A DNA stretch of 64,000 nt from Candidatus Oxydemutatoraceae bacterium (GTDB lineage: Bacteria > Pseudomonadota > Gammaproteobacteria > Poriferisulfidales > Oxydemutatoraceae), in assembly GCA_965226235.1 (NCBI GenBank), contig OZ245335.1, positions 1,580,427 to 1,644,426 on the forward strand. Direction: 5' to 3'. The notes beneath the pieces were generated by a model, which ran no database searches, was not told where the DNA came from, and worked only from the letters and a program-made list of their open reading frames with translations. The position numbers and the translations under genes are program-made. Within the stretch, counting starts at the first letter, position 1, and every line of letters begins with the position of its first letter. Shown one piece after another: positions 19,129-37,035 of the stretch.

Positions 19129-20487
19129 ATGCATATGGAATCGATGAGTGTTCCAAAGCACGCCAAGTATCTGGTAGTGGGCGCGGGGGTGCATGGGCTC
19201 AGTACCGCCTATCATCTTGCGACACAGTTCAAGGCTCGCGGTACCGGAAGCGGACGGGATATCCTCGTGCTGGATAAAAACGACATTGGGGCAGGTGCTT
19301 CAGGGATTGCGTGTGGCGTGATTCGCAACAACTATTTCCAGCCAGCCATGCGGGAGCTCATGCAACACAGCGTGGAAGTGTGGGAAAGCGACCTGGAGGC
19401 TTTTCACTATCACCCCGTAGGCTATATTCAGGCGGCCCCCGAAGCGATGCGCGCAGACACCGCCAGCATTTCCAGACAACAAAATGAAATTGGATATGAA
19501 TCCGTATACATCGAAGGCGAAAAGGAATGCGGTAAATACATGCGAAATATTTTCAGCGACTGGCAGGCCAAAAACATTTCCGTGGTCCTGCATGAAAAAC
19601 GCGGCGGTTATGCGAATAACCTGCCTAGCATGAAAGGCCTTGCCGCAAAAGCCGAGCACGAAGGCGTGCGTATTTTGCCGAACACCCAGGTGACGGGGTT
19701 TCGAAGGCATTCCGCAAGCGACGCAATCGAAGGGGTAGAGACGGACCAAGGCACCATTTCATGCGAGTATGTGATTATCGCTGCAGGGCCATGGATAAAA
19801 ACTATCTGGGAAATGCTTGAATTACCTAAGAATATTACAGTCAAGAGCTTAAACGGCACAACCCGTAACAACATGCCGATGTGGGTGTTCTGGTCGTTGC
19901 AGGAAGGCACATTGGGTGTCGATCCCGCCATGCAAAAAATGAATAACGGTGATTTTCCGCCCGTTATACACGTGGATACGGACGCGCCACTGTATTCAGA
20001 TCGCAACGGCAAGTTGATCACAAACAAGCTATGGGGCATTTACTACAAGCCTGATTTCAATTTTGGCGGCGTACAGGGAGGAACCGTACCTTTCAAAATA
20101 GATACGAACCCTGATGAAGTGAACGTGGACCCATACGGGCCTGATTCGCCTGACTATATCGTTGATGAAAGCTTCGCGGAGATGTGGGTTTCAGCCTTGG
20201 CGCATTGTCAAAAAAGATTTGAAGGCACGCTTCCAAGTTATAAAAATGAGGCTTCCGGTGGGATTGGCGCGTTCACGCCGGACAGTTTTCCCGTCTTCGA
20301 TGTTTTTTGTGACAACTGCTACATCATTGCCGACTCCAATCACGGGTACAAAATGATTGGCGTCGGGAAACTGGTTGCCGAGGAAATTGTCGGCGAGCGG
20401 CAAAAATTGCTCGAGCCATTCAGATTTTCCCGCTATGCGGAAGGGAAACTGCACCCGGTATCGAACAGCCCCTACCCGTGGAGCTAG
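19129..20487 (+). CDS. FAD-dependent oxidoreductase, sarcosine-oxidase-beta/DAO family paralog (452 aa)
   Basis: N-terminal dinucleotide-binding motif KYLVVGAGVHGLSTAYHLA, the same signature as the soxB-like gene at 31814. C-terminal extension. First gene of the gmaS-mgsABC block. Confidence 0.65.
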   Translation: MHMESMSVPKHAKYLVVGAGVHGLSTAYHLATQFKARGTGSGRDILVLDKNDIGAGASGIACGVIRNNYFQPAMRELMQHSVEVWESDLEAFHYHPVGYIQAAPEAMRADTASISRQQNEIGYESVYIEGEKECGKYMRNIFSDWQAKNISVVLHEKRGGYANNLPSMKGLAAKAEHEGVRILPNTQVTGFRRHSASDAIEGVETDQGTISCEYVIIAAGPWIKTIWEMLELPKNITVKSLNGTTRNNMPMWVFWSLQEGTLGVDPAMQKMNNGDFPPVIHVDTDAPLYSDRNGKLITNKLWGIYYKPDFNFGGVQGGTVPFKIDTNPDEVNVDPYGPDSPDYIVDESFAEMWVSALAHCQKRFEGTLPSYKNEASGGIGAFTPDSFPVFDVFCDNCYIIADSNHGYKMIGVGKLVAEEIVGERQKLLEPFRFSRYAEGKLHPVSNSPYPWS

Positions 20488-20533
20488 GAAGTCTAGAAAC
20501 AATAAAGCACGCAAATCTCAAGGAGCGAAACAA

Positions 20534-22009
20534 ATGACTACAGATCTGGAAAGACATGTCAATGCAGAGGGACGTAGCGAACTGGTCAAGCAGGTTCGCG
20601 GCATGATCGAGGCCCTGGGGGTCAGATACGTATACTTTCAGTTCGTATCAGTCACCGGTCGTATCGTGGGCAAGGGCATCCCTGCGGATCATTGGGAACG
20701 TCTTGCGGAGAGAGGGTTCCAGCTCGTCTATGGCTCAACGGCCAACCTGTACACCGACCGCCACGGCCACTATATCGGGTATGGCCCGGAAGCATCCGAA
20801 CTGGTGGGGATTCCCGACCCGGAGACCTTCTGCCAGTTGCCGTGGGATAAGCGTCTTGCGCGCGTGTTTTGCACCTGTTTTCGCAACCGCGAAGAAAAAG
20901 AAAACCCTGGAGCACACCTGAGCTCGGACTGCCGCGGCAACCTGCGCATCATCCATGGCGAATTCAAGGCCAGGCACGATGGACTGCACATGCGCATGGG
21001 TACCGAGCCTGAGATGATGTGGCTGAAGAAAGACGAAAGTGGAAATCTCGATGGCGGAGTTACCAAGCCGAACTGCTATCACATTGACCAGTTCGAGGAG
21101 TTGCGTCCAGCTTTCATGAAGGTAATCGAGTATGCCGAGCAAATGGGTTACGACATGATTCAAGGTGACCACGAGGATGCGCCCGGTCAGCTTGAATTGA
21201 ACTGGATGTTCGATGACGTGCTGCGCAACGCGGATCGCCTGACCACCTACAGGCAGATCTGCGCGCAAGTCGCACGCGAACAAAATCTGGTGGCCTGCTT
21301 CATGACAAAGCCGTTCATGGGAGTTTCCGCATCGGGATGCCATCACAACATGTCTTTGTGGAGAGGAGGAAGGTCCGTGGTGAATGATATGCACCAGGAT
21401 CCTATGGGAGGTATGGAGGATGTGTTCAGTTACCTGCAGGATGGTGAAAACACCTTTATGCCCGTCCCCGAAATCGATGAACGCAAACCTGGACCAATCG
21501 GACTTCGGTGCATTGGCGGCGTGAGGGAGCATTTACGGGCGCTGACAGCCATTGGTTCCTGCACCGTGAATTCTTACCGGCGGCTGTGGGATACTGGTTT
21601 CTGGGCGCCTGTTTTCGCAGACTGGGGGTTCCAGAACCGCACTTGCGGTTTGCGCGTTTCCGCTCCGGGGCGGTTCGAATATCGTTCCGTCGATTCCATG
21701 GTTAATCCATATTTAATGGGCGCCGCCTTGCTGAAAGCCTTTGACGATGGCATTATCAGGAACATAGACCCTGGCGAGCCCGAAGAGCGCAATATCTATG
21801 AGGCTATAAAAGAAGGGAAGGGCGTGAAAAAGTTGCCAATGTCCCTGGGTGAAGCCTTGGAGGCGCTGGAACAGGACGAAGTAATCAAGTCGGCCATGCC
21901 CGGTGAAATGTACAAGGTGTTTACTCACTACAAAAATGACGAGTGGGAACGATTCAACCACACGGTTACCAATTGGGACGTAGACACCTATTTGGATTAT
22001 CTGCCGTAA
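20534..22009 (+). CDS. gmaS: glutamine synthetase family protein (type III-like), candidate gamma-glutamylmethylamide synthetase
   Basis: ATG at 20534 with AAGGAG RBS (the tool's ORF begins upstream at 20357). Catalytic-domain motifs (…MGTEPEMMWL…NSYRRL…). Adjacent to mgsABC-like genes. Confidence 0.65.
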   Translation: MTTDLERHVNAEGRSELVKQVRGMIEALGVRYVYFQFVSVTGRIVGKGIPADHWERLAERGFQLVYGSTANLYTDRHGHYIGYGPEASELVGIPDPETFCQLPWDKRLARVFCTCFRNREEKENPGAHLSSDCRGNLRIIHGEFKARHDGLHMRMGTEPEMMWLKKDESGNLDGGVTKPNCYHIDQFEELRPAFMKVIEYAEQMGYDMIQGDHEDAPGQLELNWMFDDVLRNADRLTTYRQICAQVAREQNLVACFMTKPFMGVSASGCHHNMSLWRGGRSVVNDMHQDPMGGMEDVFSYLQDGENTFMPVPEIDERKPGPIGLRCIGGVREHLRALTAIGSCTVNSYRRLWDTGFWAPVFADWGFQNRTCGLRVSAPGRFEYRSVDSMVNPYLMGAALLKAFDDGIIRNIDPGEPEERNIYEAIKEGKGVKKLPMSLGEALEALEQDEVIKSAMPGEMYKVFTHYKNDEWERFNHTVTNWDVDTYLDYLP

Positions 22010-22032: not shown

Positions 22033-22971
22033 ATGTGTGGAATTGCCGGAGTGATACATAGAGGCTCGCCTGCCAACATTGGGCAGAAGATGACCTCCAT
22101 GTTGCATGCCTTAAAACACCGCGGCCCTGACTCGGCGGGTTTTGCGCTGTATGGAAACGGCGAGCAGAAAAGCAGGAACATCATGCGCTTCAAGGCTGCG
22201 GAGCGCGATGAACTGAAATCCGGTTTCAATATCCATCATCTGATCGAAGAACGCAAGACCGCAGTCGAAACACGCCTGCGGGAACTTGGTGCCGAGATTA
22301 GATCGATGGATCAGGCAACCGAGTACGCCTACCGGTGCGTGTTCGGTTACGAAGGCGACATGCGCAAGCTGGCCGATTACATTGAAGATGTCGAAGGGAT
22401 TGAAATTCTTTCACTCGGCAATTCACTCGAGCTTATCAAGGATCTGGGCAATGCCCGGGAAGTGGCGTCAGAATACAACCTGGATTCGTTTCAAGGCACT
22501 CACGCGATCGGGCATACGCGGATGGCTACGGAATCGGATGTTGATATTCGCTCGGCGCATCCGTATTGGGCCTATCCATATAACGATATTGCAGTCGTAC
22601 ACAACGGCCAACTGACCAACTACTGGAATTCACGGCGCGCGCTGGAGCACAAGGGGCATCGCTTCAAGTCGAACTGCGACTCCGAGTTAATCGCCGTTTA
22701 CATTGCGGACAAACTCGAGGATGGCACCTCTCTGAAGGATACTATGCACAATTCCGTGGAAGAGTTCGATGGCGTTTTCACCTACCTGGTGGCAACGCAC
22801 GATTCCCTGGGGATGGCCAAAGACACCATGGCCGCAAAGCCCTTGGTACTGTATGAGAGCGATGATTATATTGCGATGGCATCCGAGGAAGTGGCCATTC
22901 GCAGTATTTTCCCGCACGAGATCGACACGACGGACCCCTACGAGGGCGAGGTGCGCGTATGGCACAGCTAA
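22033..22971 (+). CDS. mgsA: class-II glutamine amidotransferase domain protein (glutamate synthase N-terminal domain-like), mgsA-like
   Basis: Starts MCGIAGV… (Ntn Cys1 after Met) with AGGAGG RBS. About 313 aa. Confidence 0.7.
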   Translation: MCGIAGVIHRGSPANIGQKMTSMLHALKHRGPDSAGFALYGNGEQKSRNIMRFKAAERDELKSGFNIHHLIEERKTAVETRLRELGAEIRSMDQATEYAYRCVFGYEGDMRKLADYIEDVEGIEILSLGNSLELIKDLGNAREVASEYNLDSFQGTHAIGHTRMATESDVDIRSAHPYWAYPYNDIAVVHNGQLTNYWNSRRALEHKGHRFKSNCDSELIAVYIADKLEDGTSLKDTMHNSVEEFDGVFTYLVATHDSLGMAKDTMAAKPLVLYESDDYIAMASEEVAIRSIFPHEIDTTDPYEGEVRVWHS

Positions 22972-23798
22972 AACAGTCCTCCCATGAAATGGGCATGCAC
23001 ACCGAGCAGCTTGCCGGACGCAGTCGACGGATATTTTTCTCTCCCACGGAAGAAGAAAACTTTACGAATCCAACTGCCTGCGAGGTGGATTTTGACCGAA
23101 AAACCGAGTTTGATGTTGCCAACATGGAGATCTCTGCCATCAATATCAAGATCAGGGAACTTATGCAGGAGGGATACGGCACGATCACGGTCAAAAATCC
23201 TGGCGCAAAACACTCTCTTGCCGTGGGAATTCTCAACCGCCTGAACTTGGTTTTCGAGGGCAGCCTCGGTTATTTCGGGTGCGGGCTGATCGATGGCCCC
23301 AACGTACATGTCAAAGGTCGTGTCGGATGGTCCTGCGCGGAGAACATGATGTCGGGAACGGTCGTGATTGAAAAAAACGCGGGCTCGACCTTTGGAGCCG
23401 CGCTCCGAGGCGGAGACCTGGTATGCAGAGGCGATGTTGGTAGCCGCACGGGGATCAACCAGAAAGGTGGCACTATCATCGTGGGTGGAAACGTTGGTAT
23501 GAACACGGGATTCATGATGCAACGCGGTCGCATGATATTGCTTGGCGACTCAGGCCCCAACCTGGGCGACTCGATGTACGACGGCATGATTTTCATCGCC
23601 GGAACAATCCAGAGCCTTGGTATCGACGCGGTGGAAGGGGAATTAACGGAAACCGACAAGCAATGGCTCACCAACAAGCTTTCGATCTACGGCATGGAAG
23701 TGCCACGTAGCGTGGAAAATCTCACCAAGATCGTATCCGGGAAACAGCTCTGGAATTATGATAATCTCGAGCCAACCGAGAAAAAGCTGATCCTTTAA
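22959..23798 (+). CDS. mgsB: GXGXG-domain protein (glutamate synthase alpha-subunit C-terminal domain-like), mgsB-like
   Basis: Repeated G-x-G-x-G beta-helix motifs (…KGRVGWSCAENMMSGTVVIEKNAG…RGDVGSRTGINQKGGTIIVGGNVG…). 13-nt overlap with the upstream gene. Confidence 0.7.
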   Translation: MAQLKQSSHEMGMHTEQLAGRSRRIFFSPTEEENFTNPTACEVDFDRKTEFDVANMEISAINIKIRELMQEGYGTITVKNPGAKHSLAVGILNRLNLVFEGSLGYFGCGLIDGPNVHVKGRVGWSCAENMMSGTVVIEKNAGSTFGAALRGGDLVCRGDVGSRTGINQKGGTIIVGGNVGMNTGFMMQRGRMILLGDSGPNLGDSMYDGMIFIAGTIQSLGIDAVEGELTETDKQWLTNKLSIYGMEVPRSVENLTKIVSGKQLWNYDNLEPTEKKLIL

Positions 23799-23820: not shown

Positions 23821-25212
23821 ATGGCTACACCAGATAAACAGATCGAGCTTCCAAAAGTACTGGCCGAGACAGAACCCGAGCTCGAGAGGAACCATCATAA
23901 CTTGGGATCGAGCTTTATGTTTACGCCGGATGTCATTAATGACATTCACATTAAAGCCGAGCTTGGACGTTATCGCATGCGCGGATTTTCGCTGTTCAAG
24001 AAAATTCCGACATGGGATGATCTGACATTCCTGCCGGGCACGCTTACCCGGTTCGTGATTGAGGGCTACCGGGAAAAATGCCTGACCAAAACAGTCATCG
24101 GACCGCGCGCCAAACGGCCACTGGAGCTGGATATCCCGGTTTATATCACCGGCATGAGCTTCGGCGCGCTTAGCTACGAGGCGAAAACGGCGCTGGCGCG
24201 TGGCGCGACCATGGCAGGCTCGGCAACCTGTTCAGGCGAAGGCGGCATGATTCCAGACGAGCGCAGATATTCAGAGAAATGGTACTATCAGTGCATTCAA
24301 TCGCGTTACGGATTCAATCCGCATCATCTGCGACTGGCCGACGCAGTAGAGTTCTTTATCGGCCAAGGATGCAAGGTTGGTATGGGAGGTCACCTGATGG
24401 GGCAAAAGGTGACCGATCAGGTCGCCGAGATGCGTTCATTGCCGGCGGGCATTGATCAGCGTTCCCCGGCCCGGCATCCGGACTGGCTCGGCCCGGATGA
24501 TCTGGCATTGAAAATTCAGGAAATTCGAGAGGCCACCAACTGGGAAATACCGATCCAGTTGAAACTGGGGGCCGCGCGTGTCTATGATGACGTGCGCATG
24601 GCCGTTAAAACAGACCCGGACTCCATCTATATAGACGGGATGGAAGGTGGTACCGGTGCCGGCCCGCACCTGGCGACGGAAGATACGGGAGTTCCCGGGA
24701 TTGCCGCAATCCGTCAGGCACGGAAGGCAATTGATGATTTGGGCAAAACCGGGGAAATCTCACTGGTATACGCCGGAGGCATTCGTAACGGCAGCGATGT
24801 CGCAAAAGCGCTGGCTCTGGGCGCGGACGCCATTGCGATCGGACACGCTTCCCTGATCGCGCTGAACTGCAACAAGGATATTCCGGAAGCAGACTTCCCC
24901 CGCGAAGTGGGTGTGCGCCCCGGGCATTGCTATCACTGCCACACAGGCCGCTGCCCGGTAGGCGTCGCAACTCAGGACCCCGAACTGCGTAAGCGACTGA
25001 ATCCCGACGAAGCAGCCGAGCGCGTGTATAACTTCCTGCACACCCTGACGATTGAAGCTCAGTTGTTTGCACGGGCCTGTGCGAAGACAAACATACATTC
25101 GCTGGAACCCGAAGACCTGGCCGCCCTGACGATGGAAGCTTCCGCAATGGCACAGGTGCCCCTGGCAGGAACACAGCACACCGTTGGGCGCCCGGACATG
25201 ACGAGATACTGA
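23821..25212 (+). CDS. mgsC: glutamate synthase FMN-binding domain protein (GltB central domain-like), mgsC-like
   Basis: 463 aa TIM-barrel FMN domain (…YITGMSFGALS…IDGMEGGTGAGP…YAGGIRNGSDVAKALALGADAIAIG) with 4-Cys cluster CYHCHTGRCPVG. Confidence 0.7.
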   Translation: MATPDKQIELPKVLAETEPELERNHHNLGSSFMFTPDVINDIHIKAELGRYRMRGFSLFKKIPTWDDLTFLPGTLTRFVIEGYREKCLTKTVIGPRAKRPLELDIPVYITGMSFGALSYEAKTALARGATMAGSATCSGEGGMIPDERRYSEKWYYQCIQSRYGFNPHHLRLADAVEFFIGQGCKVGMGGHLMGQKVTDQVAEMRSLPAGIDQRSPARHPDWLGPDDLALKIQEIREATNWEIPIQLKLGAARVYDDVRMAVKTDPDSIYIDGMEGGTGAGPHLATEDTGVPGIAAIRQARKAIDDLGKTGEISLVYAGGIRNGSDVAKALALGADAIAIGHASLIALNCNKDIPEADFPREVGVRPGHCYHCHTGRCPVGVATQDPELRKRLNPDEAAERVYNFLHTLTIEAQLFARACAKTNIHSLEPEDLAALTMEASAMAQVPLAGTQHTVGRPDMTRY

Positions 25213-25235: not shown

Positions 25236-25625
25236 ATGAGCAAACAAAACGATATCGACCATTTCCTGAAAGCCGATGGCTTAGACAGTGAACGCGAGAA
25301 AATGATCGGGCAGCATATCGGCTACCGGTATGATTCCAACCTTGTTCCGGATTTGAGTCGCGTCACACCGTTCCTTGAAAAATACATGAAGGTCATGGGC
25401 TGGAAAGACCTGAACTGGCTCGAAGACACCCACATGGGTTATGAAGATCAGTATCCGGCGGTTTTTGATCGCAACATCAATGGCTGGGTCAAGATTCCGG
25501 AAAATATCGTGCTGCCCGATAACCAGCAAGACCGCGACATGCTCGCACGAGAGTTATTGGTCAAGTTCCAGATGTCTTCCAGTCACCCGCTGGTCGATTT
25601 GAGGAAAGCGTACGCCAAGTTTTAG
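25236..25625 (+). CDS. hypothetical protein (129 aa) conserved position between mgsC and amt
   Basis: ORF with AGGAG RBS and a 23-nt spacer after mgsC. No recognisable motif. Confidence 0.45.
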   Translation: MSKQNDIDHFLKADGLDSEREKMIGQHIGYRYDSNLVPDLSRVTPFLEKYMKVMGWKDLNWLEDTHMGYEDQYPAVFDRNINGWVKIPENIVLPDNQQDRDMLARELLVKFQMSSSHPLVDLRKAYAKF

Positions 25626-25824
25626 GTGCATGCGAGATGGTCCGGAAAGTTTGCATTGAAGATTCATCACATGCTTTGCCCCACCGGAACAAGGGGGCAG
25701 TGTTTTCCAATCTGGAATGCTTTCGCGACAACCAGCGGAGGGAAGCGCGAAGCACCAGGGAGAAGGAGAAACCAATGGCCTCATGGCCCACAACAAGAAC
25801 CCGCAACACAATAGGAAATCAACA

Positions 25825-27225
25825 ATGATCGATCAACTAAACTCGCTGACTGTCGTCTTTACCGAATTCTACTACTGGATAACGGTGGTATTCATGTTTT
25901 TAATCCACGTGGGATTCTGCATGTATGAGGTGGGCGCTTCGAGACATAAGAACCATTTGCACACCTTGATGAAAAACATCATGATTATCCCCTTGGTCAC
26001 GATCACGTTCTTTTTCTTTGGCTGGTGGATTTATTTTGCGTTCCCGTACGGACCAGGAATCATGGGGGGCATTCAAAGTGCGGCACATGCTACTCCTTGG
26101 AGCGAGCTAATGGGCCCACACATGGGTGGTCCTCCCGCACAGGAAGCACTGAGCGCCGGCGACACCGCATACTGGGCACACCTGAACGGCGTTTTCTGGG
26201 CTGCGTTCCTGCTATTCTCCTGGACCGCAGCATCCATTGTATCCGGCTCTGTAATCGAGCGAATAAAATCAAGTGGATTCTGGATCCTGGCGGTGCTGAT
26301 AGGCTCCTTTCTGTGGATTGTCGACGCAGCCTGGGGCTGGCACTGGGACGGGTGGATGGTACACAAGCTGGGCTACCATGATGCCTATGCGTCTGGCGTA
26401 ATTCATGCCATCGCGGGCGGCTTCGCCCTGGGCGTGCTACTGATCCTGGGTCCCCGGATAGGAAAATTTCGCAAGGACGGGTCTGCGCGCAAGATCCTTC
26501 CGCACAACCCGTGGCTGGTGTGCATAGGGATCTTTTTGATCTACACGGGCTTCTGGGGATTTTACGCAGCGTGTAACGTGCCGATCATTGATTTCTTTGG
26601 CAGTGACATGCTGGATGTGGAAGACAAAACCCTGTTTACCGCAACCAACATCTATCTGGGGCCGACCACACTGTCTGCGATCACCGTTAACTTCCTGATC
26701 TCCCTGTCAGGCGGCCTGCTGGCTGGATACGTTGTTTCCAAGGGCGATCCATTCTGGACATTTTCCGGAGGGCTTGCGGGGCTCATTGCAGCTTCAGCTG
26801 GAAACGACCTGTATCATCCCCTCCAGGCATTTATCATCTCCATTGTCGGCGTGTTCATTGCGTACAACATGCACCATTGGGTAGAACGCACCTTCAAGGT
26901 CGACGACGCAGTGGGCGCCGTCGCGGTTCACGGATATGCCGGGTTCTTCGGTGTGGTGATATGCGGATTCGTGCTGTGGGGTTACCCGGCTTCCCCTTTT
27001 GAAGGATACGCGACCATTACACCCTGGGGGCAATTCGCAGGCGCGCTCATCATGTTCTTCGTGCTGGGATTTTTTCCTGGTCTGGTCGCAGCTAAAATCC
27101 TGGATAGAGTAGGGTTGTTGCGTGTTCCCAGGGAAGTCGAGTTGAGCGGCCTTGATATCACTGCAAGCGTAGAAGCCGAAGAGGCTGAGGCGGACCTCGA
27201 GAACGCGCTGGAGGCAAAAACATAG
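25825..27225 (+). CDS. amt: Amt/MEP-family ammonium/methylammonium transporter (466 aa from ATG 25825)
   Basis: 11-TM Amt-like sequence (…HAIAGGFALGVLLILGPRIGKF…VHGYAGFFGVV…). The tool's ORF starts upstream in a non-membrane leader. Confidence 0.7.
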   Translation: MIDQLNSLTVVFTEFYYWITVVFMFLIHVGFCMYEVGASRHKNHLHTLMKNIMIIPLVTITFFFFGWWIYFAFPYGPGIMGGIQSAAHATPWSELMGPHMGGPPAQEALSAGDTAYWAHLNGVFWAAFLLFSWTAASIVSGSVIERIKSSGFWILAVLIGSFLWIVDAAWGWHWDGWMVHKLGYHDAYASGVIHAIAGGFALGVLLILGPRIGKFRKDGSARKILPHNPWLVCIGIFLIYTGFWGFYAACNVPIIDFFGSDMLDVEDKTLFTATNIYLGPTTLSAITVNFLISLSGGLLAGYVVSKGDPFWTFSGGLAGLIAASAGNDLYHPLQAFIISIVGVFIAYNMHHWVERTFKVDDAVGAVAVHGYAGFFGVVICGFVLWGYPASPFEGYATITPWGQFAGALIMFFVLGFFPGLVAAKILDRVGLLRVPREVELSGLDITASVEAEEAEADLENALEAKT

Positions 27226-27274: not shown

Positions 27275-27493
27275 ATGTCAACACACGTAGAAAGCTTTGC
27301 AAACCTAGATCAAATAGGCCGCATCTATCCAATGGGAGGCAGTGAAGGTCTACTGGTTGTAATCGGTGTCGCGATCTGGATTATCTGGCATATCTGGCAG
27401 ACCCGCATCGAAAACAACGAACATCGAAAAAGCATCGAAAATGCCAAAAACTGGCTTCCGGTGCGGGAGAAGTCGGCCTTGAAGAGAGACTGA
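27275..27493 (+). CDS. small membrane protein (72 aa), hypothetical
   Basis: One hydrophobic helix (LLVVIGVAIWIIWHIW). Placed 50 nt after amt. Confidence 0.3.
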   Translation: MSTHVESFANLDQIGRIYPMGGSEGLLVVIGVAIWIIWHIWQTRIENNEHRKSIENAKNWLPVREKSALKRD

Positions 27494-27867: not shown

Positions 27868-28860
27868 GTATGAGTTCAGAAACATATGGGACAACTGGGC
27901 TGATCTGAAAAGGAAGCCGACATGCTGATGCAGCACATCGGCTTGCGCGTCCGAGGTTTCTATAAAATCGCCCGTTTATCTGACAAATGGGAGGCGATGA
28001 TGGGAACCAATTCCCAACAGAAACCGGAGGCGCCAACATTCCGGAACAATCACGGATTGAATGCCCCCACGGGATGCTTTCAAGGTCGGTCGCTCGACGC
28101 TGTATCGCTGGCGCAAAGCTCACCACGAAGGCGGGTTGAGTAGGCTGCATGCTCGCAGCAGAGCTCCGCACCAGCGCGCGCCCGCCGACGCAACTGGCCA
28201 CCGGCGCTGTGTGCTGAAATACGCGAGTGTGCGAAATACGCCGGCTACGTAACGTTTTTCCGAACCTGGGCAAGGATAAGCTGTAGGTGCTGTTGGTGCA
28301 TTGGTGTGCGCGCCAGGGGCTTGGCCTGTCTCGGTGCGAGCACCATCCGGGCGCTTAATCGCAGATACACCGGACAAGATGCGTCTTGTGCCGACGAGTT
28401 TGACGCCGAAAGGCAAGGCCAAACCGTTGTGCAGCCAACGTTTCAAACAACGGCTGGGCAAAGGCTTCTGCGCGGATTAGCCAGGTCACTGCGTCGCATT
28501 CGACACGGTAGTGCGCTTTATCGGGCGCACCCGCCGCTATCTGCTCACGGCCACCGACCACGCCAGCCGCTTTGCCTTGGCGATCGCGGTGCAACGCCAT
28601 GACAGCCAGCATGCCGCACGCTTCACGGCGTTGGTCAAAACTCTGTTTCCGGGGCGCATACCTCAGATACTTACCGATAACGGCAACGAGTTTCAGGGGG
28701 CCTTCGCAGACTATGCCTGGGCGCAGGGCATATCGCCACTGCCACACCTACCTGAGAAACCCGAAAATGAACGCTTTTAACGAGCAGTTTTAACTGCACT
28801 GTGCAGGAAGACTTTGTGGATATATGAAGAAGACCTTCTGGCCGAGGATCTACGGTCGTT
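27868..28860 (+). pseudogene. IS481-family copy, degenerate (multiple frameshifts/stops); left end carries a ~105-bp insertion
   Basis: Collinear with the complete copy (…MMGTNSQQKPEAPTF…STLYRWRKAHHEGGLSRLH…LLTATDHASRFALAIAV…) but in broken frames. Left end TGTATGAGTTCAGAAACATATGGGAC + extra 105 bp. Confidence 0.65.
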
Positions 28861-29034
28861 CAACCAAGCACCTGCCGGGCTACCTCACCAAGGACTAAAT
28901 AACCGAACACCCTGCCAGATGCTTGCTCAATGAATCCAGGTAAGAATTAATAATTCCATATCTTTCAAACAGCTGCAACGGCTACCTCGTTCGAATTAAA
29001 TGATCGTGTCATGGACGCGCCATACAATAAGGTT

Positions 29035-30144
29035 TCAACCGAGCACGGACCTCTTCTGTTTGGTCGGGTCAAGGAAGGGAATCTCTGCGGTAGTGGCCGT
29101 GCACGATACGTTCTCGCCTTTGATTTCCAGCTTGATTCCAGCTTGGGCGAGGTCAGGGCGAAGTTGAGCCATTGCGAGTGATTTATTCAAAACGGGCGAA
29201 AACACCGGAGCCGTGATCACGCCGACTTTCTCTCCACCCTGCAAAACATCCGCATCAGCGTCCACTGCCTCGTCACAATCGGCAATGACACCAAATGTCC
29301 TGATTTTCTCTTTGCCTTTGGATTGCATCACGGCTTCCTTACCTCGATAGCTGGCCGCTTTCTTCTTGCTCACCGCGAATCCCAGTCCGACTTCCCAGGG
29401 CGTGTTGTCTTCCATCATGTCGTATGGGTAAAACAACAGGCCCGCTTCGACCCGAATAGCGTCGATGCAGTTAAATGAGCAAGGGATGATACCAACCGCC
29501 TTACCCTCTTCGAGAATGGCATCCCATATTGGGACGACATCGTCGGCCTTCGCAAAAATTTCATAGCCACGCTCGCCGGAGTAGCCCGTACGTGAAATCA
29601 GGCACTGACGACCGAACAAAACAGCGGGTATCTGATGAAAATACCTCAGGTTCGGTATGTCGGCAGTTGTGTGCTGGCTAAGAAACCTGACCGATTTGGG
29701 ACCCTGTAGCGAGATATCATGCAGATCGTCATCGAAGATGATCGTGACTTCCTTGCCTTCTGCCGTTTTTTGCAACTGTTTCATACCCGTACCGCCTCCA
29801 TGCACCATCATCACGTGATTGGGAGACATATGAAACATGATGCAATCATCGGTAATACGCCCCTCCGCATTCAGAATAATGGCGTATGTCGATCTGCCGG
29901 GGTACACGGCCGACATGTCACGCGTACACACGTGATCGACAACCGCAAGCGCGTCGCTCCCCACGATATGGACCTTTTTCAGACCCGAGACATCGAACAA
30001 ACCCGCGGCGTTGCGTACAGCGAGGTGTTCACCCCGCACATCCTGGTCGTACTCCCACGGTACATCCATGCCGTTCCAATCGCCAAGCTCCGAGCCCAGC
30101 GCACAGTGGCGGGATTCCAATGCTGAATGTCTTGTAACTGCCAT
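29035..30144 (-). CDS. aminomethyltransferase (GcvT/glycine-cleavage T-protein) family, folate-binding
   Basis: 369 aa: …AAGLFDVSGLKKVHIVGSDAL… GcvT-like N-terminal signature. GGAGG RBS. Monocistronic, divergent from the HAD gene. Confidence 0.6.
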   Translation of the reverse strand: MAVTRHSALESRHCALGSELGDWNGMDVPWEYDQDVRGEHLAVRNAAGLFDVSGLKKVHIVGSDALAVVDHVCTRDMSAVYPGRSTYAIILNAEGRITDDCIMFHMSPNHVMMVHGGGTGMKQLQKTAEGKEVTIIFDDDLHDISLQGPKSVRFLSQHTTADIPNLRYFHQIPAVLFGRQCLISRTGYSGERGYEIFAKADDVVPIWDAILEEGKAVGIIPCSFNCIDAIRVEAGLLFYPYDMMEDNTPWEVGLGFAVSKKKAASYRGKEAVMQSKGKEKIRTFGVIADCDEAVDADADVLQGGEKVGVITAPVFSPVLNKSLAMAQLRPDLAQAGIKLEIKGENVSCTATTAEIPFLDPTKQKRSVLG

Positions 30145-30806
30145 CTTGTTCCTCCTGGAAAATACTACGCATCTATGGATGGAGTGTTACCTGTTTTGCT
30201 GCTGAAAACAAATCCGAACGACTCTCTCGATCGATATCTGCTCATTACCGGAAAAGTTGCGAGCCTGATGTAATTCTAATCGATTAGCCGGGAAGTACCG
30301 CATTTTCCTCACAACGCTCCTCAACCGCACGTCATGAAACGAAGCCGCTCCAGGCGCAAAATAACCCGCCCCGGGAATCCGGGCGGGGAAAATCATAAAG
30401 AGCCGGGTGAAACAGTTAGCCAGGAAATTTCACCGATGGGGTAGAAAGAGGCTGCCTCTTATGGCATAACAGTTGTTTAAACAAGCAGTTAGGTCAACCG
30501 ACCAAGGAGGCAACCTTGAAGGCACAGTGTACTTTCACCGCTGGGCAGACGATCCGTGACAGGTCGATTCGATGGCGGCCGGATCAGTTCGGACGGAGGT
30601 AGACGGGGGGAGTACCGTTGCGCGAGGTCGACAGGCGCATCGGCCTGACGGCACGGGCGATCGCGACACCAGATGCCCGGATACCGGCTACAGACACGTA
30701 ATCAGCTGTGTTCAACGGGAAACTGCATCGCAATCATGAATCGGTGACGGATGCGGGTTAGAATCAAGCTTGGTTCAATCGGATGGCTGCACTGATATAT
30801 GCCATG

Positions 30807-31559
30807 ATCAAAGGTGTACTATTGGATTTAAGCGGAGTCCTGTATGTAGGAAGCCAGCTTCTACCAGGGGCTCTGGATGCGATGCAGCATCTGGGCAGAA
30901 ACAATTTGCCGGTCCGCTTTATCACGAACACTACTCGCAGCACCCGCGGCGCAATCCTGGAAAAGCTTGCAAACATGGGTTTACACGTTGCCCAGGTCGA
31001 ACTGTTCACTGCCGCCATAGCCGCGTGCAATTACATCAAGAGAAAAAATCTTTCCCCTTACCTGTTGCTGCATGCCAACCTCGTTCCGGAGTTTTCAGAG
31101 TTCGACCAGCAAAAATTCGACTCGGTGTTGCTGGGAGACGCCGGAACAGGCTTCACCTATGAAAAGTTGAACGAGGCGTTTCGCTTGCTGTTTGACGGGG
31201 CGCCCCTGTTTGCCATGGGAGATAATCTCTATTTCAAGGAGGAGGATGGCTTCAGCCTGGATGCAGGACCTTTCGTGCACGCGCTGGAAACGGCAAGTGG
31301 GGTCAAGGCGACCGTGCTCGGGAAACCCGCAAAAGAGTTCTTCCTGGAAGCCATCCGGGATTTCCGCTGTTCGCCTGGCGAGGTCGTGATGGTCGGGGAT
31401 GACGTCGAGGCCGATATAAACGGTGCTTCCGCCGTCGGGCTTCAGGCAATCCTTGTCAAGACAGGAAAATATCGAAGCGGCGACGACCAGCGTGTTCGCG
31501 GTTCTGGTGTGCGTATAGCGGAACATATCGCTCAGGCTGTAGAATGGATTACCCGGTAA
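30807..31559 (+). CDS. HAD-superfamily hydrolase, subfamily IIA (phosphatase-like)
   Basis: Motif I LLDLSGVLY, motif II ITNTT, and C-terminal …MVGDDVEADINGA…. Start may be 30783 or 30807. Confidence 0.6.
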   Translation: MKGVLLDLSGVLYVGSQLLPGALDAMQHLGRNNLPVRFITNTTRSTRGAILEKLANMGLHVAQVELFTAAIAACNYIKRKNLSPYLLLHANLVPEFSEFDQQKFDSVLLGDAGTGFTYEKLNEAFRLLFDGAPLFAMGDNLYFKEEDGFSLDAGPFVHALETASGVKATVLGKPAKEFFLEAIRDFRCSPGEVVMVGDDVEADINGASAVGLQAILVKTGKYRSGDDQRVRGSGVRIAEHIAQAVEWITR

Positions 31560-31813: not shown

Positions 31814-33055
31814 ATGCCATGGAGTTTGTTAAAATACGGCTTCGCCGTCAGGTACCCGGCCCGCCGGGATATCCCTGCTCCACGCGATCTGAAAAAATCC
31901 TACGATGTCGTCATTATCGGAGCCGGAGGACACGGTCTGTCCACCGCCTATCATCTGGCGCGTTATCACGGTATCACGAATGTCGTCGTGCTGGATAAAG
32001 GGTATGTAGGCGGCGGCAACACCGCACGCAACACAACGGTGATTCGCTCGAACTATATCTCGCCCGAGGCGGTTGCGTTTTACAAGGCCTCCGTGGAGAT
32101 GTTCAAAAATCTATCCAACGAGCTGGGATATAACCAGATGTACTCCCAGCGCGGCCAGCTGACCCTCGCTCACTCTGATGCCAGCGTACGCGCATTTACG
32201 CTACGTGCGGAAGTCAACAAACACTTGGGAGTCCGATCCGAGATGGTGGATCGAAGACAGATCCGTGAGATCGTGCCGTGCCTAAATATGGACAAAAACA
32301 TGCGCTTCCCGATCCAGGCAGGCCTGTGGCACCGTGATGGCGGCACGTCGCGGCATGATGCCGTTGCCTGGGGATACGCGATGCGAGCGGCGCAAATGGG
32401 CGTCGAAATTCATCAACGGACCGAAGTCACCGGCATACAGGTTGACGCAGGCAGGGTCGTGGCAGTGCAAACAGATCGTGGCACCGTCAAGTGCAACCAT
32501 GCCGTCCAGGCTGTTGCCGGCATGAGTTCGGTGGTTGCGAAAATGGCCGGGATCCGGTTGCCGATACGAAGCTATCCTTTGCAGGCGATGGTTACGCAGC
32601 CGGTCAAGTCCTTCCTTGATCCTCTGGTCAGTTCCGCGGGGCTGCATGTCTATGTCTCGCAGACAGCACGCGGGGAATTTGTCATCGGTGGGGGTTCGGA
32701 TCCATACGAACTGTATTCGACACGCTCAACCCTGGACCTCAAGGAAACGCTCATTGCGCACACGCTTGAGTTGTTCCCGTTCATTGCCGAGTTGAAACTG
32801 CTGCGGCAATGGGCAGGCATTACAGATATGACTCCAGACTACAGTCCCATCATGGGTGCCAGCCCGGTGAAAAATTACTGGCTGGATGCCGGATGGGGCA
32901 CCTGGGGGTTCAAGGCTACACCCATTTCAGGGAAATGCATGGCGGAGACGCTCGCGAACGAAAAAACAGCCCCGCTGATCCAGCCGTTTGGGCTCGACCG
33001 GTTCAAGACCTTCAAGCTGACCAACGAGGCGGGAGCTACCGCCGCAAGTCATTAG
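31814..33055 (+). CDS. soxB: sarcosine oxidase beta-subunit family FAD oxidoreductase (N-methylglutamate dehydrogenase subunit A-like)
   Basis: 413 aa, YDVVIIGAGGHGLSTAYHLA. Followed by delta, alpha and gamma homologs in sox order. Confidence 0.7.
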   Translation: MPWSLLKYGFAVRYPARRDIPAPRDLKKSYDVVIIGAGGHGLSTAYHLARYHGITNVVVLDKGYVGGGNTARNTTVIRSNYISPEAVAFYKASVEMFKNLSNELGYNQMYSQRGQLTLAHSDASVRAFTLRAEVNKHLGVRSEMVDRRQIREIVPCLNMDKNMRFPIQAGLWHRDGGTSRHDAVAWGYAMRAAQMGVEIHQRTEVTGIQVDAGRVVAVQTDRGTVKCNHAVQAVAGMSSVVAKMAGIRLPIRSYPLQAMVTQPVKSFLDPLVSSAGLHVYVSQTARGEFVIGGGSDPYELYSTRSTLDLKETLIAHTLELFPFIAELKLLRQWAGITDMTPDYSPIMGASPVKNYWLDAGWGTWGFKATPISGKCMAETLANEKTAPLIQPFGLDRFKTFKLTNEAGATAASH

Positions 33056-33065
33056 GGACACACGC

Positions 33066-33341
33066 ATGAAAATAATGAACTGTCCACTGAATGGCCCGCG
33101 AAATATCTCGGAATTCATCTGCTTTGGCGAAGTTTCCAGGATGCCAGACCCTCAAAGCACCAATGACGACGAATGGGCGGATTTTATCTGGATGTCGAAC
33201 AATACCGCGGGCGTGGTTCGGGAGTGGTGGTGCCATACCGTAACGGCGTACTGGTTCATTGCGGAACGCAACACAATCACAGACGAGATCCTGAGAACCT
33301 ACCCCGCGAGCGATATCTTTAACGAACGGATTGATTTCTGA
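33066..33341 (+). CDS. soxD: sarcosine oxidase delta-subunit family protein
   Basis: 91 aa: MKIMNCPLNGPRNISEFICFGEV…, the SoxD Zn-ribbon-like start. Confidence 0.65.
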   Translation: MKIMNCPLNGPRNISEFICFGEVSRMPDPQSTNDDEWADFIWMSNNTAGVVREWWCHTVTAYWFIAERNTITDEILRTYPASDIFNERIDF

Positions 33342-33374: not shown

Positions 33375-36299
33375 ATGAAAACTTCTCTCAATCGGTTACC
33401 TTCTCCTGCAGGAATACTGGTCAATCACGAGAAGCCGGTAAGCTTCAGTTTTGAAGGTAGGCAATGTACAGGGCTGGCTGGAGACACCATCGCAAGTGCC
33501 TTGGCTGCAAACGACATCTGGCTGCTGTCGCGTTCATTCAAGTACCACCGCCCACGCGGGATACTGTCAATGGCAGGGCTCGAGGCAAATACCCTCGTGC
33601 AGGTCGAGCACGAGCCCAATGTAGCTGCCGACAGGCGAAAAATCACCCCGGGACTCGAGGTGACCGGTCAGAATTACGTCGGTAGCCTGGTCAACGACCG
33701 ATCTGCAAAAATAGCCTTGGCAAGCCGATTTCTTCCGGTAGGATTTTACTACAAGGCATTTTTCCGTCCCCGGGGGGTGTGGCAGAATCTCTGGGAGCCC
33801 ATCATCCGGAAACGTGCAGGACTTGGGCAAGTACATCTCGATTCCCCGCGCGATTACTACGACAAAAAATACCTGTTTTACGAAGTCGCAGTCATCGGCG
33901 GCGGGCCGGCCGGCATGAGTGCCGCTTTGAGCGCGGCCAACTCGGGCGCAGAAGTTCTTCTCATCGAGCAGGAAGCCGTGCTTGGTGGCTCACTCAATTA
34001 CGGCCGGTTTGACGCGGAAGGCAAGCTGGCGCCTGAACTGCGCACTGAACTCGCCACCGCGGTCGAAAACCACCTCAACATCGAGGTCATGACAGACGCT
34101 GTCTGCAATGGATGGTTCGCCGATAACTGGCTGCCTGTTATCCGCGATCGTCGCATGTACAAGCTGCGCGCGAAGGAATTGATACTCGCCACGGGAAAAA
34201 TGGAACAACCTGCAATTTTTCACAACAACGACCTTCCGGGCGTATTGCTGGGGACAGCTGCACAGCGATTGATTCGCCTGTACGGCGTCCGTCCGGGCAA
34301 ACAGGCCGTAGTTCTCACAGCTGGCGACGATGGTTATGCAACGGCACTGGAGTTGCTGGAAAACGGCGTGCATGTCGCGGCTGTCGCTGATCTGCGCGAA
34401 ACTTTTGACGCAACGCCCCTGTACGAGAAAGTGCGCGCCAGCGATATACCCGTCCACACGGCGTGCGCGGTCTACGAAGCGCTTCCGGACAAGCACACGT
34501 GCCACATACGTGCCGTGGAGTTACGCAGGATCAAGGGCAAGGGACAATGTGGCGACAGGGTGCAACAGTACGACTGCGACCTGCTTTGCGTATCTACGGG
34601 GTTCATGCCTGCCTTCCAGCTTGCGCTACAAGCCGGTGGCAAACTGTCATACGATGACGAGGCGTCCATGTTTTCGATTACAGGGTTGCCTGCCGGCGCA
34701 CATCTGGCGGGTGCAATCAATGGAGAAAATCAGCTCGGTGCGATAACCGAGTCCGGCACGCGTGCCGGACAAACCGCATCTGAGAAACTGGGATTTACCG
34801 TGCCGGGCGATGCTCCTCCAAAGCGGATATTTCCCACTTCCTACACCAGCGCTAATCACCCCTGGCCTGTTTTTCCACACCCCCGGAACAAGGAGTTCAT
34901 AGACCTGGATGAGGATTTGCAATACCAGGATATCGTGCACGCGTGCCAGGACGGATATGCCGAACTCGAATTGGTGAAGCGCTATTCGACGGTCGGCATG
35001 GGGCCTTCACAGGGTCGCCACTCGGCGCTGGCTACCGCGCGCCTGGTTGCGGACATAACTCGGCGCAGCGTGTCGGAAATCGGTGTCACGACAGCCCGTC
35101 CTCCGCTTTGCGCGGAGAAACTGGCCGTGATCGCGGGACGCAGTTTCGAGCCTGAGCAACTGACCGCAATACACCATCGTCACCTGGCAGCGGGCGCACA
35201 GATGATGGTTGTCGGAACATGGTGGCGACCTGCCTACTACGGTCCTCCCGAGCACTGCGATCAGTGCATTCGTGAAGAAAACCTGCAAATTCGTAACAAT
35301 GTCGGCGTAATCGATGTATCGACCCTGGGGGGACTGGAAATTTGGGGGCCGGACGCCGCAGAATTCATAAACCGCATATATACCTTTTCCTACTCTAAGC
35401 AAAAGACGGGCACATCCCGGTACCTGCTGATGACGAACTCCGCCGGGATGATCACCGATGACGGGATTGCGTGCAGGTTTGGCGATGAACATTTTTATGT
35501 CACCGCAACAACCGGCGGCGTGAATAACGTTCACCGAATGATGCTATGGTGGAACGCGCAATGGTGCCTCGACGTCGTTATAAACAATGTCACGGCGGCA
35601 TACGCGGGCATAAACCTGGCAGGCCCCCAATCCCGGGCGGTCTTGCAACAGGTGTGCAGCGACACCGACCTCTCTCCCGAGGGATTTCCTTACCTGGCGG
35701 TACGTACCGGCGTCGTAGCCGGTATTCCGGCGCGCTTGCTCCGCGTGGGCTTTGTAGGAGAACTGGGCTATGAAATACATGTGCCGTCCTCACAGGGTGA
35801 GGCGTTGTGGGACACGTTGCTGGACGCAGGACAGGGATATGGAATCAAGCCGGTGGGTATCGGGGCACAGCGCCTGTTACGCCTGGAGAAAGGCCACCTG
35901 ATTGTCGGTCAGGATACCGACGCCATGACGACCCCACAGGGAGCCTGCTTGGCGTGGGCAATATCCAGAAACAAACCATTTTTCGTGGGAAAGCGGTCTT
36001 TGCAGATCACCGAACGCCATCCGTCAAACCGCAAACTCGTGGGCTTTTCGACTGAAGCCGCAGAGCATGAAGCGCCGCAAGAGTCGAACCTGATACTCGA
36101 CGGCGATTCCATTGCCGGACATATTACTTCGGTCGGATACTCCCCTACCTTGAAGAAAATTGTCGGAATGGGGTATGCCCGGGCTGACACCGAGCCAGGT
36201 ATGTCGATATGTATCAAGCTGAAGAACGGCAACATTCATACTGCCCAGGTCGTGGAGCTGCCGTTTTACGATCCGGAAAACAACCGCCAGAAAATGTAG
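33375..36299 (+). CDS. soxA: sarcosine oxidase alpha-subunit family protein (NAD/FAD-binding N-terminus + GcvT-like folate-binding C-terminus)
   Basis: 974 aa. Rossmann motif VAVIGGGPAGMSAALSAA. C-terminal aminomethyltransferase-like domain. Confidence 0.7.
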   Translation: MKTSLNRLPSPAGILVNHEKPVSFSFEGRQCTGLAGDTIASALAANDIWLLSRSFKYHRPRGILSMAGLEANTLVQVEHEPNVAADRRKITPGLEVTGQNYVGSLVNDRSAKIALASRFLPVGFYYKAFFRPRGVWQNLWEPIIRKRAGLGQVHLDSPRDYYDKKYLFYEVAVIGGGPAGMSAALSAANSGAEVLLIEQEAVLGGSLNYGRFDAEGKLAPELRTELATAVENHLNIEVMTDAVCNGWFADNWLPVIRDRRMYKLRAKELILATGKMEQPAIFHNNDLPGVLLGTAAQRLIRLYGVRPGKQAVVLTAGDDGYATALELLENGVHVAAVADLRETFDATPLYEKVRASDIPVHTACAVYEALPDKHTCHIRAVELRRIKGKGQCGDRVQQYDCDLLCVSTGFMPAFQLALQAGGKLSYDDEASMFSITGLPAGAHLAGAINGENQLGAITESGTRAGQTASEKLGFTVPGDAPPKRIFPTSYTSANHPWPVFPHPRNKEFIDLDEDLQYQDIVHACQDGYAELELVKRYSTVGMGPSQGRHSALATARLVADITRRSVSEIGVTTARPPLCAEKLAVIAGRSFEPEQLTAIHHRHLAAGAQMMVVGTWWRPAYYGPPEHCDQCIREENLQIRNNVGVIDVSTLGGLEIWGPDAAEFINRIYTFSYSKQKTGTSRYLLMTNSAGMITDDGIACRFGDEHFYVTATTGGVNNVHRMMLWWNAQWCLDVVINNVTAAYAGINLAGPQSRAVLQQVCSDTDLSPEGFPYLAVRTGVVAGIPARLLRVGFVGELGYEIHVPSSQGEALWDTLLDAGQGYGIKPVGIGAQRLLRLEKGHLIVGQDTDAMTTPQGACLAWAISRNKPFFVGKRSLQITERHPSNRKLVGFSTEAAEHEAPQESNLILDGDSIAGHITSVGYSPTLKKIVGMGYARADTEPGMSICIKLKNGNIHTAQVVELPFYDPENNRQKM

Positions 36300-36303
36300 T
36301 CGA

Positions 36304-37035
36304 GTGCAAACCCCGTTACAACAAGTGCGTCCTGAGGATTTCAAGACGCGAAGCCCCCTCTACAGAACCCTATTGGCGGCCGGCGCGCGGTTTGGAAGCT
36401 ATATGGACACCGCTTGTGCGATGGACTATGGCGGAAGCGAAGAGCAGGAAATATCCCAGGCTAGACAACTGGGCCTGGCTGATTTAACGCCGTTGCCAAG
36501 AACGGGGTTCAAAGGACGGGAAGCGATCCGATGGTTAAGGTCGCAAGGTTTGGAAATCGGCCAGCGTAGCAACCAGACCTACCTTCAGTCAAACGGCATG
36601 CTGGTTGTGCGAATTGCCGATTCTGAAATCATGATCCTGAACAGTTTGAGCAGTCGCGACAATCAATTGGCAAACCTGGAGAAGGAACACGCGCGCGGCC
36701 ATTCTGCAGGGTGTTATTCCGTACCTCGCTTCGACACATCGGCTTGGTTGATGGTTACCGGCCAGTGTGCGAGTGAAATGTTCGCAAAAATCTGCGGTGT
36801 GGACTTGCGTGCGGGAAAATTTCCTCCGGAAGCCATCGCGCAGACCTCGATTGCACGCACGAACGGTATCGTCATTCGCAACGGCCTGGGTGAAGTGCCT
36901 GCTTTCCACCTGCTGTTCGATAGCGCATCAGCCGATTACATGTGGTCCTGCTTGACGGATGCCTGTAGAGAATTCAAAGGAGCGCCAGTCGGATATGCCG
37001 CGCTGTCGCGGATTGTGGTGCCGCAAACTGTATGA
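36304..37035 (+). CDS. soxG: sarcosine oxidase gamma-subunit family protein
   Basis: 243 aa in the expected position after soxA. 5-nt gap from the soxA stop. Confidence 0.6.
   Translation: MQTPLQQVRPEDFKTRSPLYRTLLAAGARFGSYMDTACAMDYGGSEEQEISQARQLGLADLTPLPRTGFKGREAIRWLRSQGLEIGQRSNQTYLQSNGMLVVRIADSEIMILNSLSSRDNQLANLEKEHARGHSAGCYSVPRFDTSAWLMVTGQCASEMFAKICGVDLRAGKFPPEAIAQTSIARTNGIVIRNGLGEVPAFHLLFDSASADYMWSCLTDACREFKGAPVGYAALSRIVVPQTV

Follow-up and report, generated by a model that had tools for sequence, protein, structure and literature searches.

Whether the known N-methylglutamate (NMG) pathway or a relative of it is encoded is the question raised by a block of genes at positions 19129-37035 of a 64,000-nucleotide stretch of contig OZ245335.1 (assembly GCA_965226235.1, positions 1,580,427 to 1,644,426) from a Candidatus Oxydemutatoraceae bacterium; the whole stretch is referred to below as the window. 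The original prediction for this DNA had described a gmaS candidate, an mgsABC-like trio and a soxBDAG-like tetrad, with some unusual additions. An open reading frame (ORF) listing and Pfam/NCBIfam scans show that every gene claimed for this block is present and intact, with strands and coordinates essentially as described; a 72-aa membrane ORF after the Amt gene was missing from the list. We conclude that a widespread and highly conserved paralogue of the NMG pathway module is encoded in the window, complete and intact (Table 1). Its members are a flavin adenine dinucleotide (FAD) amine-oxidoreductase (DAO452), a ligase of the glutamine synthetase (GS) fold (GS490) followed by three glutamate-synthase-like subunits (A', B' and C') and an orphan protein (u129), and an Amt-family channel with a small membrane protein (u72). 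The best reading of its function, judged from sequence comparison and held with moderate confidence, is that methylated amines are used through a variant of the gamma-glutamyl/N-methylglutamate type of route. The original prediction was right about the type of chemistry and wrong about orthology and about its "extras".

Homologous loci were collected by a scan of one genome per species, which gave 80 loci at 73-81% GS identity. The window proteins were compared with the loci by tblastn, with 10 kb on either side of the module in view, for 82 loci including the window (locus numbers carry the prefix L; the SAR11 loci lie within L057-L081). The order GS490-A'-B'-C'-u129 is retained in 54 of the 56 loci with enough downstream sequence, and this recurrence in independent loci is far beyond chance. 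DAO452 immediately precedes GS490 in 44 of 74 loci (14/14 SAR11 and 30/60 others), the divergent Amt gene is found in 38 loci (61-76% identity), and the whole order DAO-GS490-A'-B'-C'-u129-Amt-u72 is shared with SAR11 at an identity of at least 58%. By synteny, the DAO-like gene, the 129-aa ORF and the Amt gene, which had been taken for unusual additions, are instead conserved parts of this lineage. The carriers in the species scan were Pelagibacteraceae, SAR324, Arenicellales, Poriferihabitaceae and other sponge symbionts, and Acidimicrobiia, together with Thalassospiraceae, Dongiaceae, Hyphomicrobium, Burkholderiaceae and one Eremiobacterota metagenome-assembled genome (MAG). A homology search returned thousands of GS490 homologues (489-492 aa, 80-91% identical), and within the GS490 lineage identity runs at 73-91%, from SAR11, SAR324, Arenicellales, sponge symbionts and Acidimicrobiia to soil bacteria. 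Among the PLSDB plasmids, no member of the C' lineage was found, and all 475 matches were below 60% identity and represent canonical MgsC.

The intactness of the genes also bears on whether the window copy is a decaying remnant, bombarded by insertion sequences (IS) and without current function in this genome. The window does hold six or more IS481-family copies or remnants along with pieces of other transposase genes, and one IS remnant separates the module from the sox-like operon. Such decay is nevertheless extremely unlikely because all the genes are full-length: the alignments of all window module proteins cover 95-100% of the homologue length with no frameshift. In addition, the same gene order, free of IS, is found in a closed genome with a GS-like protein of 89% identity.

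GS490, whose true start is at 20534 and not at the TTG at 20357, scores 306.4 bits against TIGR03105 ('type III glutamate-ammonia ligase'), under the cut-off of 469.6. It scores 171 bits to GmaS 7cql, 191 bits to 9qur and 206 bits to archaeal GS, and the second GS of SAR11 scores 585 bits against 7cql. The identity of GS490 to the GmaS clade is 26-35%, compared with 74-90% within its own clade and 53-89% within canonical GmaS. In a neighbour-joining tree (a distance method), the GS490 clade and the GmaS clade were each monophyletic in 100 of 100 bootstrap replicates. The methylamine pocket proposed for RhGmaS consists of K30', Y147, Q175, D177, E179, E186 and N188 (PMC7948447), and all seven residues are identical in 13/13 GS490 and 9/9 GmaS sequences. 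All GS490 sequences have Trp where GS has the flap residue Glu327 and Cys where it has Tyr179, the same as in GmaS; E. coli GlnA has different residues at most of these pocket and flap positions. Compared to canonical GmaS, the module ligase has ~50 additional residues and two insertions (one of ~26-33 aa after the Mn-binding His region, the other an enlarged Asp50' loop), and has the substitutions Y174I and H237N. The conservation of Asp50' in GS490 is ambiguous, as HMMER and MAFFT place the inserted loop differently. Taken together, these results suggest that GS490 is a GmaS-like alkylamine ligase by predicted chemistry, and not a member of the GmaS family by descent. Since the GmaS pocket is conserved, monomethylamine (MMA) is most likely its substrate.

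Next to GS490 lie three adjacent genes for an N-terminal nucleophile (Ntn) glutamine amidotransferase (GATase) with Cys1, a GXGXG subunit and a flavin mononucleotide (FMN) glutamate-synthase domain, which is the MgsABC arrangement. A' shares 31-32% identity with canonical MgsA and 55-72% with its module homologues, and B' has 279 aa compared with 226-227 aa in canonical MgsB, with an N-terminal extension of ~50 aa. C' is 79-90% identical across phyla, and shows 54% identity to MgsC of Paracoccus aminophilus and ~30% to GltB. Together with the GmaS-type amine site of the ligase, this supports the earlier view that the set is NMG-pathway-like. The C' motif ALNC...CYHCHTGRCPVGVATQ (ALNC...C-YH-C-HTGR-C-PVGVATQ) aligns over the three [3Fe-4S] cysteines of GltB. 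In the C' family, the C..C....C cysteines are present in 61/61 members and the ALNC cysteine in 60/61, in contrast to canonical MgsC, which has D...YDDWHEGxD at the cysteine positions in 8 of 9 sequences, including those of P. aminophilus and Rhizobium leguminosarum; the one canonical-type sequence that retains the cysteines is a SAR11 set-2 protein. That an Fe-S-free FMN subunit is a trait of canonical MgsC is our own reading of these 8/9 sequences and not a published definition. The retained Fe-S ligands hint at electron exchange between A'B'C' and a partner.

The same three cysteines are what would be expected if the module served alternative ammonium assimilation, with a GlnT-type GS, a split archaeal-type glutamate synthase (GOGAT), an ammonium channel and DAO452 as redox partner. 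The folds are those of GlnA/GltBD and of split archaeal-type GOGAT, an Amt gene is linked to the module, and the SAR11 genes are annotated as glnT and gltB2. However, the ammonium-site residues of GS are replaced (Glu327 and Tyr179 by Trp and Cys, as in GmaS), which makes this role very unlikely. The module also has no GltD-like subunit, its proteins are closest to NMG synthase (for C', 54% compared to ~30% for GltB), and its synteny is with Tdm, trimethylamine dehydrogenase (TMADH) and sox genes, a methylated-amine context, and not with nitrogen-regulation genes. Moreover, SAR11 has separate glnA and gltBD, which respond to nitrogen limitation while the GS-like protein, the FMN subunit and the Amt of the module go down (PMC3870248).

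The orphan u129 has 68 invariant columns in an alignment of 25 sequences and is abundant in metagenomes (7971 cluster representatives), and it has no Pfam or NCBIfam match. Among 1.84 billion representatives, no remote homologues were found, only its own family (286 clusters, all at least 45% identical), and its AlphaFold2 model (pLDDT 77) has no PDB fold match at E<1. By synteny alone, u129 is probably an accessory subunit of the synthase. We also observed a third paralogous GATase/GXGXG/FMN trio adjoining the module in L026 (1941-5000, minus strand), L052 (5261-8200, minus strand) and L059 (2739-5700, minus strand), beside the Amt gene of the module in L026 and L059. This third trio, with four cysteines (CIA-CMQCHVGQC), shares 36-43% identity with the window trio, and its presence brings the deep lineages of split glutamate-synthase-like enzymes around these loci to at least three.

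The canonical NMG genes of Methyloversatilis, Methylocella, Ruegeria and P. aminophilus (pAMI6) encode the same domain set as the window. Both systems have the GmaS-type pocket with the flap Trp, Cys1 and a linkage to tdm/tmm; in contrast to the canonical system, the module has DAO452, u129, Amt and u72 as four additional conserved partners, and its FMN subunit keeps the Fe-S cysteines that canonical MgsC mostly does not have. Both sets can be compared within SAR11, where the gene order in L058 is tmoXWV, tdm, DAO, GS490, A'B'C', u129, amt, a second trio and a second GS. The mgsABC-gmaS products of pAMI6 share 47/61/74/53% identity with SAR11 set 2 and only 32/38/54/30% with the window set. 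Together with the sub-cut-off TIGR03105 score and the low bits to solved GmaS, this argues against the gmaS/mgsABC orthology that had been proposed for the window genes. Both trios occur together in L058, L065 and L073, and canonical genes also accompany the module in L027, L047, L052, L062 and L067. In SAR11, canonical gmaS adjoins the module with or without mgsABC, so the module co-occurs with the canonical genes and does not replace them. These comparisons indicate two deep paralogous systems, canonical and module. As a separate observation, canonical gmaS lies directly after Amt with no canonical mgsABC in the SAR11 loci L057, L063, L066, L068, L069 and L079-L081, and the module trio is the sole NMG-synthase-like enzyme seen there.

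In 'Ca. Pelagibacter ubique' HTCC1062, the module corresponds to SAR11_1304 (monomeric sarcosine oxidase), 1305 (glnT), 1308 (gltB2), 1309 (hypothetical) and 1310 (amt), with the locus tags matched by gene order and published annotation only, and not by sequence comparison. SAR11_1304-1310 have the same order and families as the SAR11 loci L057-L081, whose proteins are 58-82% identical to those of the window. The window copy differs in its host, an uncultured bacterium with a genome of ~2.1 Mb, in being linked to TMADH and not to Tdm and TmoXWV, and in having an adjacent DmmD-like gene, a soxBDAG-like operon and flanking IS elements. The neighbouring SAR11_1313-1316 have been treated as NMG synthase and GmaS (PMC3160333, PMC3870248). 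Under nitrogen limitation, SAR11_1304 of HTCC1062 was strongly induced and was speculated to be an amine demethylase (PMC3870248). Since only this DAO-like protein rose, the module genes are not simply co-regulated.

DAO452 carries GAGVHGLSTAYHLA and the SoxB of the window carries GAGGHGLSTAYHLA, and the GAGxHGLSTAYHLA motif reported earlier for both SoxB-like proteins is therefore real; the two are 27% identical over 232 aa. The best PDB matches of DAO452 are SoxB and DMGDH (1e-14 to 1e-8). These matches suggest that it is distantly related to SoxB, DMGDH and DMGO, and it appears to correspond to the 'monomeric sarcosine oxidase' of the SAR11_1304 type. Since homologues (58-70% identity) align over 99% of the length of DAO452, the idea that this gene is a pseudogene, truncated or fused, was rejected.

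The Amt-family channel is of the SAR11_1310 type, and its likely start at 25825 is the same site in two independent gene calls. Its best PDB match is Kuenenia Ks-Amt5 at only 3e-27, with both pore histidines kept. The transporter is present and divergent as had been claimed, but it does not come right after the mgsC-like gene, since the 129-aa ORF lies between them. Homologues of u72 were found by tblastn directly downstream of module-type Amt in at least 26 loci, SAR11 included, and were also predicted by gene callers in L001 and L084; u72 may be a small partner subunit of Amt. The u129-Amt spacer (25626-25824) has 200 nt here, compared with 40-65 nt in L018, L028 and L084 and 117-144 nt in SAR11. 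A candidate structured RNA has been described upstream of SAR11 amt (PMC2704228). In the window, the spacer has no Rfam match and a fold z-score of -0.74, and no Rfam family was found in the whole window. A conserved structured RNA was rejected for this spacer in view of that z-score and of the mere 40-65 nt in close relatives.

A strong methylated-amine context is seen around the module both here and elsewhere, which supports the earlier functional proposal. The TMADH orthologue of the window lies 10 kb from the module, and TMADH (82% identical) also flanks it in L035, a Burkholderiaceae MAG. Tdm neighbours the module in every SAR11 locus and in 13 of the 38 other full-length loci, 5 loci have Tmm, and sox-like operons are present in 12 of the 38 non-SAR11 full-length loci. 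In total, a C1-amine neighbour occurs in 25/38 non-SAR11 loci and 10/10 SAR11 loci. These frequencies, and the fact that no recurrent genes of other amine pathways were seen at the loci, make it distinctly unlikely that the substrate is another small amine (ethylamine, ethanolamine, hydroxylamine or an unknown marine amine) with a loose link to methylated amines. That alternative draws on GmaS-type pockets taking ethylamine and hydroxylamine well, on the 13 of 38 non-SAR11 full-length loci without a Tdm, TMADH or sox neighbour, and on the presence of the module in the soil lineages Dongiaceae, Eremiobacterota and Burkholderiaceae.

The sox-like operon scores under the sarcosine-oxidase cut-offs (soxB 491.6 compared with 529.45, soxD 62.9 with 116.5 and soxA 824.4 with 1164), and its gamma-like subunit (243 aa) has a weak GCV_T match only. 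Its products are 42/37/33% identical to those of the operon beside P. aminophilus mgsABC-gmaS, with no gamma match. Orthologues (55-73%) adjoin the module in L018, L029, L030, L032, L034, L042 and L084, and are also present in the closed genome of the close relative mentioned above. The operon is a candidate N-methylglutamate dehydrogenase.

The monocistronic gene divergent from the HAD-IIA gene had been described as GcvT-like. It is present in that arrangement, but its product is not a generic folate enzyme: it is 49.7% identical to R. leguminosarum DmmD over 374 aa (2e-120), the match to B. subtilis GcvT (PDB) is weaker at 198 bits, the protein scores under the cut-off of the GcvT family, and identity to Tdm is 29%. 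A homologue (42%) lies directly upstream of GS490 in L014. In the known system, the dimethylamine (DMA) monooxygenase DmmDABC, a heme-dependent oxidative N-demethylase with DmmD as its THF-binding subunit, likewise acts downstream of an enzyme that produces DMA, and in the canonical cluster of R. leguminosarum pPR2, dmmDABC is kept beside tdm and gmaS. In contrast, DmmA, DmmB and DmmC were not found at E<=1e-5 in the window or the 81 related loci when the pPR2 proteins were used as queries.

The orphan DmmD-like gene, the absence of DmmABC and the co-occurrence of canonical gmaS in SAR11 keep alive a direct role in DMA use, in which the module would be a dedicated route replacing DmmDABC. In such a route, GS490 would ligate DMA to glutamate, A'B'C' would turn the resulting gamma-glutamyl-dimethylamide into N,N-dimethylglutamate, DAO452 would convert it to N-methylglutamate, and the soxBDAG-like enzyme would finish the reaction. 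In its favour, the DMA producers Tdm and TMADH are frequent neighbours in the 82 loci that have no DmmA, DmmB or DmmC, and a DmmD-like gene without DmmABC lies beside the module both here and in L014. SAR11 has no dmmDABC (PMC5520151), yet HTCC1062 grows with trimethylamine N-oxide (TMAO) as nitrogen source, for which an unknown isoenzyme was proposed by the authors (PMC8918994). In SAR11, the position of the module between tdm and canonical gmaS points to a non-redundant function, and DAO452 is kin to flavoenzymes that demethylate dimethylglycine. However, the GS490 pocket is identical to that of RhGmaS, whose Km for DMA is ~600-fold above that for MMA; half of the modules have no adjacent DAO452; and Dmm could sit elsewhere in the non-SAR11 genomes, beyond the 10 kb in view on either side. 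We regard this dedicated route as unlikely.

In the favoured NMG-type route, DMA would first be supplied by TMADH or Tdm; in the window this would be TMADH, predicted as an orthologue of the solved enzyme to yield DMA and formaldehyde. Flavoprotein demethylation, most plausibly by DAO452 with the tetrahydrofolate (THF)-binding DmmD-like protein as C1 acceptor, would then take one of the secondary or tertiary methylamines of the pathway one methyl down; this would be the weakest step. GS490 would use ATP to ligate a small alkylamine, most likely MMA, to glutamate, as the conserved pocket suggests. Cys1 of A' would free the amine from the gamma-glutamyl amide, and A'B'C', probably with u129, would fix it on an imine derived from 2-oxoglutarate at the FMN site to give an N-methylated glutamate. 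This enzyme keeps the GltB Fe-S ligands, which most canonical NMG synthases do not, and it may thus pass electrons to or from a partner. The soxBDAG-like enzyme would strip the N-methyl group to give methylene-THF, and Amt-u72 would import methylammonium or export ammonium.

Several points weigh against this route. About half of the non-SAR11 loci have no adjacent DAO452, several of them with Tdm. An Fe-S cluster has no evident role in the redox-neutral reaction of NMG synthase, and GS490 and GmaS were sister clades in only 67 of 100 bootstrap replicates. With a conserved MMA pocket, the module appears to duplicate canonical GmaS in SAR11, an oddity in streamlined genomes. In HTCC1062 under nitrogen limitation, SAR11_1305, 1308 and 1310 were lower or undetected (PMC3870248). 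In the literature searched, the module lineage had no functional assignment.

These results matter because gmaS and mgsABC serve as markers of methylamine use, and automated annotation would file the module genes under them. The module is more conserved than the canonical system and very abundant in metagenomes, and as a predicted widespread variant of a known pathway it bears on marine methylated-amine cycling. It is also located at the unexplained gap of SAR11, the conversion of DMA without DmmDABC, which underlies a published hypothesis on oceanic DMA emission, and it supplies concrete enzymes for this long-standing question. It is possible, although we find it doubtful, that the module supplies the missing route by which SAR11, like many other marine and soil bacteria with Tdm, Tmm or TMADH and no DmmDABC, breaks down DMA. 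On this view, DAO452 may be a flavoprotein that dehydrogenates DMA with the help of a DmmD-like THF protein; alternatively, DMA may be processed via gamma-glutamyl-dimethylamide to N,N-dimethylglutamate. The A'B'C'-u129 complex, with its Fe-S cluster, would in that case be related to NMG synthase but coupled to redox chemistry. If this were true, the proposed 'DMA bottleneck' in the ocean would need revision.

Table 1. Features of the module and its surroundings, in window coordinates
Feature	Position	Strand	Remarks
Intact IS481-family transposase, left boundary	17852..18865	+	transpos_IS481 1.5e-53; Pfam rve, HTH_32
DAO452, FAD amine-oxidoreductase	19129..20487	+	Pfam DAO, residues 14-231 only
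GS490, GmaS-like glutamate-alkylamine ligase (predicted) of a separate clade	20534..22009	+	491 aa
A', class-II (Ntn) glutamine amidotransferase, MgsA-like	22033..22971	+	GATase_6, GATase_7; begins MCGIAG (Cys1)
B', GXGXG subunit, MgsB-like	22959..23798	+	Pfam GXGXG; start overlaps A' stop by 13 nt
C', FMN glutamate-synthase domain, MgsC-like	23821..25212	+	Glu_synthase 2.8e-91
u129, orphan 129-aa protein	25236..25625	+	after C' in 54/56 loci
Divergent Amt-family channel	25825..27225	+	Ammonium_transp 7.9e-54; 466 aa
u72, 72-aa single-helix membrane protein	27275..27493	+	directly after Amt
Degenerate IS481 remnant splitting the island	~27967..28930	+	63% identity to residues 35-320 of the intact copy; broken frames
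DmmD-like THF-binding aminomethyltransferase	29035..30144	-	divergent from HAD-IIA gene
HAD-IIA hydrolase	30783..31559	+	241 bits vs TIGR01458
soxB/D/A/G-like operon	31814-33055, 33066-33341, 33375-36299, 36304-37035	+	SoxB, SoxD, SoxA domains; beta-delta-alpha-gamma order
IS481 remnant, right boundary	37050..37280	-	77 aa, 82% identical to intact transposase
TMADH island	41658..49325	-	~10 kb downstream of module
ETF beta and alpha	41658-43414	-	TMADH island
458-aa protein without family match	43470-44846	-	TMADH island
720-aa membrane Fe-S/CCG oxidoreductase	44883-47045	-	TMADH island
TMADH	47133-49325	-	TMADH island; 1268 bits vs PDB 1djn

The HAD-IIA gene, which had been counted as a member of the cluster, is present here, but no homologue was found in any other locus (1/82 loci including the window), and it is probably an incidental neighbour. 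Beside the TMADH island, we observed genes for a histidine kinase and a LuxR-type response regulator (39485-41328, minus strand). A urea/Liv-type ABC transporter, with a TAT-signal binding protein, two permeases and two ATPases, also adjoins the island (50488-56047, plus strand), and weak homologues (29-30%) of its binding protein lie near the module in L002 and L070.

The IS481 claims made for this region hold, as a dead copy splits the cluster and IS copies or remnants lie at both edges. The degenerate copy has no long ORF, and the ORFs overlapping it have no Pfam match. More IS481-family remnants were found at 7122-7235 (minus strand), 9922-10338 (minus strand) and 51874-52572 (plus strand), and other transposase genes or fragments (DDE_Tnp_1, rve/IS3-like) at 10488-12332, 12396-13697 and 38781-39437; IS debris is thus unusually abundant in the window for a genome of ~2.1 Mb. 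In addition, a 389-aa ORF with an FMN_red domain (16149-17318, minus strand) has near-identical partial copies (81-97%) at 58292-59001 (plus strand) and 59250-59759 (minus strand). These copies, ~41 kb away from the ORF and on both strands, suggest a duplicated or rearranged segment.

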